DNA from: a virus | Taxonomy: Duplodnaviria > Heunggongvirae > Uroviricota > Caudoviricetes | Virus record (IMG/VR): IMGVR_UViG_2541047728_000006 | Location: 1 to 10,287 of that record | Direction: 5' to 3' (one strand) | Length of the DNA: 10,287 nt | Part shown: one piece after another, positions 3,201 through 6,200 of the stretch | Layout of the letters: every line of letters starts with the position of its first letter | Position numbering within the stretch: the stretch's first letter is position 1 | Program-made: the position numbers

Positions 3201-6200
3201 GTGTATTTTTCAAACATCGCGCGTTTATCGAGCAATATACGCATAAACAACGCCGCGCCGACGGTATTGGTGACCATCATTGGCGCAGCAATATTACTCA
3301 CCAGACGCACCGCATCTTCATAAGGTCGGGCGATCGCCAGGATAATCAACATTTGCACCATTTCAGCGACGAACGTGACGGCACCGGCGGTAATGGGGTT
3401 AAAGACTTTATCAGTGCGCCCGCGACGGATCAGGATGCTGTGTACCAGGCCACCGAGCAATCCTTCAACGATGGTCGAGATCATGCAACTTAGCGCGGTC
3501 ATGCCCCCCATCGAATATCGATGTAACCCGCCGGTCAGACCAACCAGCCCACCGACGACCGGACCGCCGAGTAAGCCGCCCATTACCGCACCTATCGCAC
3601 GGGTATTGGCAATAGAATCGTCAATGTGCAACCCAAACCAGGTGCCCATGATGCAGAAGATGGAAAAGACGATGTAGCAGAGAAATTTATGCGGCAGACG
3701 AACCGTGACCTGCATTAACGGTATGAATAATGGCGTTTTACTCATTAACCACGCAATGACTAAAAAAACGCACATCTGCTGAAGCAGCAGCAACACCAGA
3801 TTAAAATCGTACATACCCGCAAACCACACTTCCCTTTAAAACGCGTAACATACATTGCTTGCGTTTAACTTTCTTTGAACTCTTGCAGAAAAATGAGAAT
3901 TCGTGAGTACGATCACTCAAAATCGCCTGGCAAAAATAAAATCACCCTATAGATGCACAAAAAACGGGCAAAACTACCTGGTTCGCAAAACTGCGTCTAA
4001 AGTTAAACCGGGACCTCGCGAGCAAGGGTGAGACGATGGCGCTTTACACAATTGGTGAAGTGGCGTTGCTTTGTGATATTAACCCTGTCACGTTACGCGC
4101 GTGACGCAACATTTTTAAAAATCGACGAAGATCGTCCAGGAGCGCCATTTTTCAAGGGTTGGACAGATGATTCGTTTTCGATGTCGACGAACTTCGACGG
4201 ATTTCGCCGATAAAAAGTGTCCCATACATGCCCCATAGATGCCCCATAGGCAATATTACCAATTGACACTGGTTATCCACACAGCTAAAAATAACACCTG
4301 TACATAACTACAGTTACAGGAGGGGGTTATGCGTGTTGAGATCTGTATCGCTAAAGAAAAAATCAGCAAAATGCCGAAAGGTTCTGTTCCTGCTCTGCAG
4401 CAAGAAATGCTGCGCCGCATAGGTAAGCGATATGACGATGCAGATGTGATCGTTAAATCTGCCAGCAATGATGGACTCACCATTTTAAGAGCCGTCGATA
4501 AAGAATCAGCACTGGAGTTCGTACAGGAAACACTACAGGAAGTCTGGCAAACCGCGGACGACTGGTTTATGCAATAACGGGATCATAATCACTGTAATGA
4601 CCTGTTTTGTATGACATTCTTAAAAGGCATAACAACGAGCTTGTCGTTTCAAGCGACTTCTTCTGGTTGGGGAGCCTGAGTGCTCCCCTTTTTTTCAGCT
4701 AAAAATCAGCATACAGCCATACAATCCCGCACAGGCCACCACCGGCACCACAAAATCCATCAGACTGGCCACATTCCACACACGCGGATCAAAACCGCCC
4801 CACCACGGCATGTTCTGTCTGTGACCATCACCAAAACGCTTAATCCAGCGATATTCTGCCTGGGTATGTTCTCGGGCAATAAAGAACGTACAACCCGCTA
4901 TCGCTCCGTAAACCCAGTCACCGGTAATGCACCCGACCAGCCCCTGCACGGCTACTGCACAAATTGCATGAAGTATCGGCGTGATATCCATCTGCTCCCC
5001 TTAAAACCACTCCCTGAGCGGGCGCTCTGGTGTAACCACCCACTCACGGAACACGGATTCATCAAAGCCATCGTCAAGAAGACGAATATTAACAAAGTAC
5101 CCTTCGTCTCGCGTGTATTCAGGCTCCCCGTCAGCAGAAACACCTGACTCACTGAACGTAAAACCAATCTCATCAACCAGAACGGCATTCTGCAGCTCTT
5201 CGTCCTCTTCCCAGTTAAGTTTCCTGAGAAATGCCCTGAAATCTGCTTTATCACTGAAACGCAACGTGAAATCTCTCACTCCACAACCTCCCCAAGCTGC
5301 GCATCTGTTAGCTCTTTATGCCAGAGACGAAAATTCCTCACATGCCCAAATAAATGGCGTAATCCTGCTGTAGTTTGTCCACCAATGCGAATGGTTGCTG
5401 TACTCCGGATATATTCCCATGTGGTTTTTGTTTCGCTGGATATACGCCCGTTACTTACTGCACATGTAGACTGATCTGACTTTACACGCATCCCCATAAC
5501 CATTTTTTTCAACGATGCGTTTTCGTTAACACGCCTATTTGATCCACCAATATCGCAATAAGGAAATCCGTCTGGCCCATCTGCCGAAGATCCGAAGCCA
5601 AGAATAATAGCCGCTCCGGTTTGATGACCGCCGGTATCAAAAACACGTGGCGCTGCATTTGGCGTTTTATACCAGTTCTTATGTACCTCACAAAGAACCG
5701 TAAAAGGAAGATTATAAAGATTATTCTTAATCGGAACTGTAACCATATCGCTTGCGCGCGTCGCCGCCGTCGTTCCTGATATAATAAAAGATGATACACA
5801 CGAACCATCCTCAACCTGAGGGGTGGCCAGATAAATATAGTCACCAGATTCAACGACACCACCTTTTTTTGGTGCGTATTGTATTGCAGAGGTTATGTAA
5901 GTTTCTTTACTTGCTTGAATCGTTGCCTCTACAAAAATCCAGCCCGTAGCTTCATCTTTGTTAACTCGTGCGGTGAGCCTGTCGGCAGCTACACCGGTGA
6001 TTTCAACCAATAAAGACCGCGTATTAACAATGGTATATCCAAGATTAGATGAAGCGCTGCCATCGAAGGCTTCAAACCTGATCCTTAACAGGAGTTCCAA
6101 ATCCGTTTTAAATCTGCACGATGTCGTCACACACTTATTATCGCCTGATACATCGACAGCCCCCGAGGTTGAAACTACTGCCATATTAAGGGTTGTACTT

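Follow-up and report, generated by a model that had tools for sequence, protein, structure and literature searches.

The phage attachment site (attP) of bacteriophage lambda carries, besides binding sites for integration host factor (IHF), excisionase (Xis) and Fis, the arm-type sites P1, P2 and P'1-P'3, and its Xis sites take the form of short repeats arranged in tandem, head to tail, in the arm distal to the integrase gene (int). The integrases (Int) of lambda and HK022 have a common arm-type specificity and differ in core specificity. Here we consider a stretch of 10,287 nucleotides from the IMG/VR virus record IMGVR_UViG_2541047728_000006 (positions 1 to 10,287, the whole of which is referred to as the window). 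The window contains the int-distal end of a lambdoid prophage that has inserted into mlrA (yehV). Just inside the prophage, at 4217-4249, lies an array of 11-bp repeats which, judging from the sequence, very probably represents the int-distal cluster of arm-type sites in a lambda-like attP. Arm-type sites as a concept belong to the textbook; the motif and its geometry for this integrase family are what is added.

The proteins of this family have been classified before. Smyshlyaev et al. 2021 (PMC8138268) assigned proteins with a DUF3596/PF12167 domain to an IntBPP-1 subgroup of "putative integrases" that includes those of an Stx2a-phage and of Gifsy-2. The integrase of the Stx1 phage VT1-Sakai carries PF12167 (Arm-DNA-bind_2) at residues 7-70 (E = 2e-24) together with the PF00589 catalytic domain, and the arm-binding domain was the best-conserved integrase domain in all comparisons made. 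A sequence search of the PDB returned distant relatives of the catalytic domain only (Tn1549, lambda Int) and no structure of the arm-binding domain. The arm sites of yehV/mlrA, 933W, Stx, wrbA, Gifsy or PF12167/DUF3596 integrases are undescribed in the literature searched, from which subscription journals are largely absent.

Sequence comparison places the prophage end precisely: the match to intact mlrA stops at 4103, and the DNA from ~4104 rightwards is that of the prophage. A 21-bp common core, CCCTGTCACGTTACGCGCGTG (4083-4103), is common to both prophage junctions and to intact mlrA; it is found at the int-side junction of Escherichia coli IAI39, E. coli FDAARGOS_1283 and VT1-Sakai, and the records AP000400, FJ184280 and JQ347801 mark it as an attachment site or as a direct repeat. 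The window junction is the same as that of the Stx1 phage VT1-Sakai and of YYZ-2008 and JLK-2012, whose GenBank records give a 20-21-bp core duplication. A 6-bp inverted repeat, GTCACG (4087-4092) and CGTGAC (4100-4105), which was also returned by an inverted-repeat scan, provides the putative core-type sites (4087-4105), and the 7-bp spacer between its halves, TTACGCG (4093-4099), would be the overlap region, the cleavage positions being likewise deduced. The gene int lies outside this prophage end, and hence the window, and has to be read in relatives. FDAARGOS_1283 is the best match of the window (99.6% identity) and carries an apparently complete mlrA prophage of ~46 kb with xis and int intact, its Int agreeing with that of VT1-Sakai at 427/428 residues and its Xis at 84/84. 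IAI39 matches the window at 99.2% identity (positions 213-10287), with 701 bp of the window 100% identical; its homologous prophage is a 17.5-kb remnant, interrupted by insertion sequences (IS), in which xis and the N-terminus of int are gone and the last 152 int codons are left.

The array itself consists of three tandem 11-bp units on the plus strand, GTGTCCCATAC (4217-4227), ATGCCCCATAG (4228-4238) and ATGCCCCATAG again (4239-4249), which read AAAGTGTCCCATACATGCCCCATAGATGCCCCATAGG as one run. Each unit holds an 8-bp core: TGTCCCAT at 4218-4225 in the first, and TGCCCCAT at 4229-4236 and 4240-4247 in the others. Tandem Repeats Finder describes the array with a period of 11, 2.6 copies, 94% matches and a score of 51. 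The core form TGYCCCAT occurs five times in the window against 0.81 expected, a number reached in 0/200 shuffles, and three of the five occurrences are the tandem copies; the array is far above chance. The initial annotation of this DNA had pointed to the three 11-bp units together with three copies of TCGACGA/G (at 4122, 4184 and 4194) beside the prophage junction, and direct reading of the sequence bears out all six copies and the junction.

The counterpart of the array lies at the opposite end of the prophage. At the int-side junction of VT1-Sakai, IAI39 and FDAARGOS_1283, the last int codons read AAAGTGTCCCATGTATGCCCCATAAG, a two-unit version of the motif in the orientation of the first two units of the window array. 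Joining the two junctions gives a reconstructed attP of ~240 bp, numbered here with window position 4096, midway through the inferred overlap, as zero. On this scale the int-proximal arm units lie at -84 to -77 and -73 to -66, an IHF-like site, AATCAGTTAGTTT, at -35 to -23 (a 12/13 match to the IHF consensus WATCARNNNNTTR, with an A-tract before it), and the core at -9 to +9 (GTCACG at -9 to -4, spacer TTACGCG at -3 to +3, CGTGAC at +4 to +9). On the other side follow a conserved block, GAAGATCGTCCAGGAGC, at +31 to +47, a 10-bp-phased triplet of repeats at +88 to +117, and the putative int-distal arm units at +122 to +129, +133 to +140 and +144 to +151 (+122 to +151 for the array as a whole). 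The motif TGYCCCAT therefore occurs in either arm of attP, away from the core, whose sequence, GTCACG-N7-CGTGAC, is a different one. The comparison with the other junction and with the reconstructed attP, which the initial annotation had put forward as a check on its repeats, thus turns out in favour of the 11-bp motif, found as a pair within the int 3' end in the same orientation. Because their spacing is 11 bp, the two int-proximal copies fall in different reading frames; that they are frame-shifted and yet hold the same DNA core, and that the distal copies are non-coding, indicates a constraint on the DNA and not on the protein.

The same arrangement extends through the integrase family. 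Relatives at graded distance were chosen by tblastn, and their integrase identities are given relative to VT1-Sakai. Tandem TGCCCCA(T/A) pairs flank the core in all relatives examined, down to 50% integrase identity. In Stx1_699 (83%), which is integrated in yecE, the int-proximal pair reads GTGTCCCATAC ATGCCCCATAG; on the distal side, it is other yecE phages that share the VT1-type arm. CobraSix (65%), an Enterobacter phage known as a virion genome and devoid of dinI, has TTGCCCCATCC ATGCCCCACGC on the proximal and ATGCCCCATAT ATGCCCCATCG on the distal arm; VT2-Sakai (66%), a 933W-type phage of the wrbA site, has GTGCCCCAGAC GTGCCCCAAAG proximally and two distal pairs, TTGCCCCAAAT ATGCCCCAAAC and TTGCCCCAATA GTGCCCCAAAC. 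The corresponding pairs are ATGCCCCATCAC TGCCCCAAAGC and TTGCCCCATCC ATGCCCCACAC in Gifsy-2 (64%), and ATGTCCCACCC ATGCCCCATAA and TTGCCCCATTC TTGCCCCATTT in the Yersinia phage 30.14 (50%). Position 8 of the motif is T in VT1-type phages; in VT2-Sakai it is A in 4/4 distal and 1/2 int-proximal copies, the remaining copy reading TGCCCCAG. Motif and geometry are kept in seven or more lineages in which the flanking DNA has diverged. The comparison with other mlrA-integrated prophages that the initial annotation had named as a check is likewise in favour of the 11-bp motif, which is conserved there and throughout the integrase family.

A motif-first scan of IMG/VR for TGCCCCATNNNTGCCCCAT returned at least 119 loci, and in ~50 of those listed the motif falls on the 3' end of a homologous int. 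Since the motif was also the means by which these loci were selected, they were left out of the consensus. In contigs with an intact attP (L020, L124, L109 and L129), a second pair stands at +189/+200, counted from where the Int alignment ends. This second pair is absent in contigs with host DNA downstream (yecE, pncB, ettA, tRNA genes), which form a natural negative control for it. Two AT-rich IMG/VR loci (L056, 1187-1397; L125, 13393-13414) encode integrases that are 20-22% identical to the family considered here and have a tandem TGCCCCATnnnTGCCCCAT directly after the int stop codon, followed in L056 by a second pair 192 bp downstream; the L056 integrase gave no match to PF12167.

Among nine close relatives, 0/24 columns of the 8-bp cores are variable against 3/9 columns of the 3-bp linkers. 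The number of distal units is 2 in most lineages, 2+2 in the 933W-type and L020-type and 2 to 5 in the VT1-type, with 2 in Stx1_14040, 3 in the window, 4 in L137 and 5 in BP-4795. The VT1-type arm occurs in 543/5426 complete E. coli genomes, and in a spread sample of these the length differences are exact multiples of 11 bp. On the int-proximal side, by comparison, two units were present in 35/35 distinct sequences seen. We note that the copy-number polymorphism (2, 3, 4 or 5) separates arms that are otherwise near-identical (L007, L009 and L137; E. coli H125 and H174-H176).

Such variation by exact 11-bp multiples is what would be expected if the array were a functionless, slippage-prone minisatellite whose likeness to the int 3' end is a historical accident. 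We regard this as highly improbable, given that a 7-8-bp core is kept on both arms, at a fixed distance from the core and the conserved block, in lineages that cannot otherwise be aligned, that the cores are invariant and the linkers variable among close relatives, and that the chance of a tandem TGYCCCA pair with 11-bp spacing arising within 300 bp is, by our estimate, ~1e-5 per site. The same indels bear on the idea that the region encodes a small protein. A mechanical listing of open reading frames (ORFs) does contain a minus-strand ORF at 4269-4093 (58 aa) and a plus-strand ORF at 4028-4213; the 11-bp and 22-bp indels of the relatives inside the array would, however, shift the frame, no gene is annotated there in the relatives' records examined, and the reading frame of mlrA is not that of the plus-strand ORF. 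The coding reading is rejected on account of the 11-bp indels, and we give it next to no credence. Alternatively, the repeats could be an upstream regulatory element of the SOS-controlled promoter that follows them. A promoter scan identified a near-consensus promoter of the dinI-like gene with an SOS box on the plus strand at 4263-4313 (-35 hexamer TTGACA at 4263-4268, -10 hexamer AAAAAT at 4287-4292, LexA box CTGTACATAACTACAG of the form CTGT-N8-ACAG at 4298-4313), a homologue of which is annotated in VT1-Sakai. The array lies ~15-50 bp upstream of the -35 hexamer, which starts 14 bp past it, and array and promoter are conserved together in VT1-type phages. An array in the same position relative to att is nevertheless present in phages without dinI at that place (CobraSix, VT2-Sakai, L109, L124, L129 and the Yersinia phage), and the copies of the motif within the 3' end of int have no dinI anywhere near them. 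The persistence of the array without dinI rules out a promoter element as its primary role, and the probability that we attach to this explanation is accordingly minimal: promoter and SOS box adjoin the att arm but lie outside it. An integrase on the array would sit directly upstream of the dinI-like -35 hexamer, and bound integrase may have a secondary effect on dinI transcription.

A further possibility is that the 11-bp repeats bind not integrase but excisionase (a directionality factor of the DUF1233 family) or another accessory protein. Head-to-tail tandem repeats in the int-distal arm do look like the Xis sites of lambda, and an excisionase gene adjoins int in all relatives. Against this, the motif is on both arms, including the int 3' end; it remains constant while Xis falls to 47-61% identity and tracks instead the arm-binding domain, the best-conserved part of the integrase; and separate, lineage-specific repeats beside the array are a better Xis candidate. 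We therefore consider excisionase or accessory-protein sites very unlikely as an explanation of the 11-bp units.

These lineage-specific repeats bring in the TCGACGA/G copies, which the initial annotation had grouped with the 11-bp units as integrase or accessory-protein sites. That proposal stands for the 11-bp units, present on both arms and across the family, and is not established for TCGACGA/G as a three-copy motif. There is something to be said for a genuine three-copy protein-binding motif: three exact copies lie within 79 bp, and the second (TCGACGA, 4184-4190) and third (TCGACGG, 4194-4200), both on the plus strand, are set at a 10-bp phase in the part of the spacer that is best conserved relative to Gifsy-2. 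The enrichment of TCGACGR is, however, marginal (5 in the window against 2.17 expected, with as many in 9/200 shuffles) for a motif that was picked post hoc, and there is no enrichment at the int-proximal arm. Among close relatives, 4/28 columns of the TCGACGA/G copies vary against 6/68 in the remaining arm, each copy being substituted somewhere, which gives no hint of a special constraint on them. The first copy (TCGACGA, 4122-4128, plus strand) follows an A/T tract at 4110-4121 and lies in a small palindrome, GACGA-AGA-TCGTC (4124-4136); its heptamer reads TCAACGA in JLK-2012 and BP-4795 and ATCACTA, AACGGTA or ATTACCG in more distant arms, and is thus unconserved in all diverged arms, where only the adjoining block is kept. 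On balance we think it rather unlikely that TCGACGA/G is a binding motif in its own right.

What is conserved at the first copy is the block whose left edge it overlaps, GAAGATCGTCCAGGAGC (4127-4143, plus strand; family consensus RAAGAWCGYCCARGAGC). The block is variable in 0/17 columns among the nine close relatives and recurs in CobraSix, VT2-Sakai, Gifsy-2 and several lineages of IMG/VR; its carriers include phages of E. coli, Enterobacter and Salmonella. In six lineages it stands 74-77 bp away from the first distal unit, although the sequences in between are unrelated. The IHF consensus WATCARNNNNTTR at one mismatch or fewer is not found in the interval from +10 to +121, which includes the block and the first TCGACGA copy. 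The second and third copies, for their part, are the first two units of the 10-bp-phased triplet TCGACGAACT / TCGACGGATT / TCGCCGATAA (4184-4213, plus strand), which stops 4 bp before the core TGTCCCAT (4218) and in which Tandem Repeats Finder sees a weak array (4184-4210, period 10, unit TCGACGAACT, 2.7 copies, score 33). Gifsy-2, whose Xis is the closest to the VT1-type Xis (61% identical), carries the triplet TTAACGAACT / TTAACGAACT / TCACAGACCA in exactly the same register; window and Gifsy-2 agree at 20/30 positions of the triplet against 13/40 in the first part of the spacer, and the kernel that they have in common is ACGAACT, not TCGACG. Lineages with Xis 47-54% identical have different direct repeats at this position, for instance TTCATATGA twice or CGTTCTTT twice. 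A phased triplet beside an arm-type site, as are the Xis sites of lambda, makes an excisionase-site reading of 4184-4213 reasonable but unproven, and we put it forward as a possible function; the triplet has no counterpart on the other arm. The arms compared are, however, related by common descent, and the copies show no special conservation among close relatives.

The initial annotation had further suggested that the repeats define the recombination specificity of this phage at mlrA. Phages integrated in yecE contradict this, their arm aligning with the window from the first phage base. Between VT1-Sakai (mlrA) and Stx1_699 (yecE), Xis is identical at 84/84 residues and the arm-binding domain at 75/75, and the DNA of xis and of int codons 1 to ~98 is 98-100% identical, whereas DNA identity drops to 57-78% over the remainder of int, the int-proximal arm and the core, and the core-binding and catalytic domains are 81% and 80% identical in amino acids. 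The boundary is a sharp mosaic one at about int codon 100 (L010 1700-3460 compared with L141, that is, Stx1_699), and high identity resumes in the distal arm. The cores occupy the same place and read GTCACG-TTACGCG-CGTGAC in mlrA and GTCACT-TTAACTG-CATGAC in yecE phages. Despite the divergence of this cassette, the spacings of its arm motif and IHF-like site are unchanged at 28 and 13 bp; the int-distal arm has no match to the IHF consensus at one mismatch or fewer. The motif core also occurs in wrbA phages, Gifsy-2 and others, and is thus not specific to mlrA. Given that yecE phages have the same arm, Xis and arm-binding domain, the repeats do not define mlrA specificity; as far as can be read from these sequences, site choice tracks the cassette of core and core-binding/catalytic domains, with the arms and the arm-binding domain as a constant scaffold.

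Taken together, these features are suggestive of the following mechanism. The integrase would be a tyrosine recombinase of the DUF3596/Arm-DNA-bind_2 group (IntBPP-1 subgroup) with two DNA-binding specificities. Its N-terminal arm-binding domain would recognise TG(C/T)CCCA(T/A) units at a spacing of 11 bp, or one helical turn, two of them at a distance of 66-84 bp from the crossover, within the 3' end of int, and three (2 to 5 in relatives) at 122-151 bp on the opposite side, and the target of its core-binding and catalytic domains would be GTCACG-N7-CGTGAC, the inverted repeat. With the arms folded back by DNA-bending and accessory proteins, every integrase monomer would span one arm site and one core site, in the manner of the lambda intasome; candidate places for such proteins are the IHF-like site (-35 to -23), the block (+31 to +47) and, in the case of excisionase, possibly the triplet at 4184-4213. 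The arm sites would then provide the architecture of the integrase family and probably the control of directionality, and the choice of mlrA would fall to the core and the core-binding/catalytic part. The distribution of the motif, its geometry, its conservation and the domain content of the integrase are observed here, and from them we infer binding, bridging and the role of each site.

Several points weigh against the assignment of the array as an arm-type site cluster. The searchable literature yielded no binding or recombination experiment on this integrase family. The window is without int, and the homologous element is a remnant in IAI39, although xis and int are intact in FDAARGOS_1283. 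The IMG/VR loci, having been picked by the motif, offer no independent definition of the consensus. Finally, the copy number of the distal array differs between relatives, from 2 to 5, which indicates that the exact number is not critical and that some copies may therefore be redundant products of replication slippage.

A broader proposal is that TGCCCCA(T/A) at 11 bp is the general arm code of a very large clade, which would extend from the Stx, Gifsy-2 and Enterobacter phages to the AT-rich phages with the L056 and L125 integrases (~20% identical), and that distal copy number tunes the efficiency of integration and excision; we offer it tentatively and consider it doubtful. Were it true, attP boundaries and excision competence would be predictable from sequence, integration specificity could be re-engineered by swapping core cassettes between fixed arms, and copy-number tuning would affect prophage stability and the reactivation of mlrA and curli in pathogenic E. 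coli.

As for the remainder of the window, its left part holds the chromosomal genes yehR, yehS, btsR and btsS (yehU), followed by the start of mlrA (yehV). The mlrA stub (4036-4104, plus strand) comprises the first 22 codons and corresponds to a homologous partial coding sequence of 66 nt in the IAI39 RefSeq record and to the truncated yehV of VT1-Sakai; its stop codon TGA (4102-4104) is formed across the junction, where the common core contributes TG and the phage arm A. The prophage gene nearest to this junction is a DinI-like gene (4329-4577, plus strand; Pfam PF06183, E = 6.7e-17; also in RefSeq), behind which there is a strong terminator-like hairpin at 4669-4688. Two small ORFs, a tail fibre gene, lom and gpJ follow on the minus strand, and a 15-bp tandem repeat, AACAGTCGCTTCAGG, is present in 2.3 copies at 8750-8784 within the gpJ tail-tip gene. 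No RNA family of Rfam matched anywhere in the window at gathering thresholds. Positions 1-212 have no match in the closest complete genomes, the alignments with which begin at 213, and the minus strand from 129 to 1 encodes the N-terminus of an IS21-family transposase; the strain of the window thus seems to carry an IS between yehQ and yehR. In IAI39 (L012 14984-19018), fragments of IS3/IS629 and a group II intron interrupt int, and the tape-measure gene is truncated; the mlrA region there adjoins lysO and an IS110, which points to a chromosomal rearrangement. The record of phi330 (L013, PV189401.1), deposited as a "complete genome", was considered as a native attP and rejected on account of a 20-bp core present twice in tandem (around 660-700, between int and dinI), an arrangement that suggests prophage ends joined end to end.

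The integrase family considered here mobilises the Stx1/Stx2 phages of mlrA, yecE and wrbA and Gifsy-2 of Salmonella, all medically important prophages. Insertion in mlrA silences this curli/biofilm regulator and excision restores it, according to work cited in PMC7192596. Motif, core and geometry together give exact attP boundaries for prophage annotation, a sequence test of the recombination competence of prophage ends, and concrete oligonucleotides and mutants for a first biochemistry of this family, and the mlrA and yecE phages offer a natural specificity switch in which core and core-binding and catalytic cassette are exchanged between constant arms. Since arm-type sites are a textbook concept, the result fills a gap and overturns nothing.

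With respect to described systems, the IntBPP-1 subgroup (PMC8138268) is the family to which the DUF3596/PF12167 domain links this integrase, and its Stx2a-phage and Gifsy-2 members carry the arm motif; that work classified the proteins and left arm sites undescribed, and motif and geometry are added here. The GenBank records of VT1-Sakai, YYZ-2008 and JLK-2012 agree with the window in junction, 20-21-bp core duplication, dinI promoter and SOS box, while the arm-type sites and the conserved block are unannotated in them. A description of the mlrA/yecE cassette swap, the motif or the geometry was likewise not found in the searchable literature. The points of likeness to lambda attP are an N-terminal arm-binding domain, an arm motif distinct from the core inverted repeat, tandem arm sites that abut or overlap the int 3' end with an IHF-like site between them and the core, and a second arm cluster ~120-150 bp away on the other side, for a total span of ~240 bp. 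The present system differs from lambda in its arm domain (PF12167), in its motif, TGCCCCA(T/A), and in that all of its putative sites point in the same direction; the distal cluster is a tight tandem array of variable copy number instead of two separated sites, and the block at +31 to +47 is without an IHF consensus. Finally, as in lambda and HK022, the mlrA and yecE phages have arm, Xis and arm-binding domain in common, but neither the core nor the core-binding and catalytic domains; unlike that pair, their switch looks like a discrete mosaic cassette that runs from about int codon 100 to just past the core.

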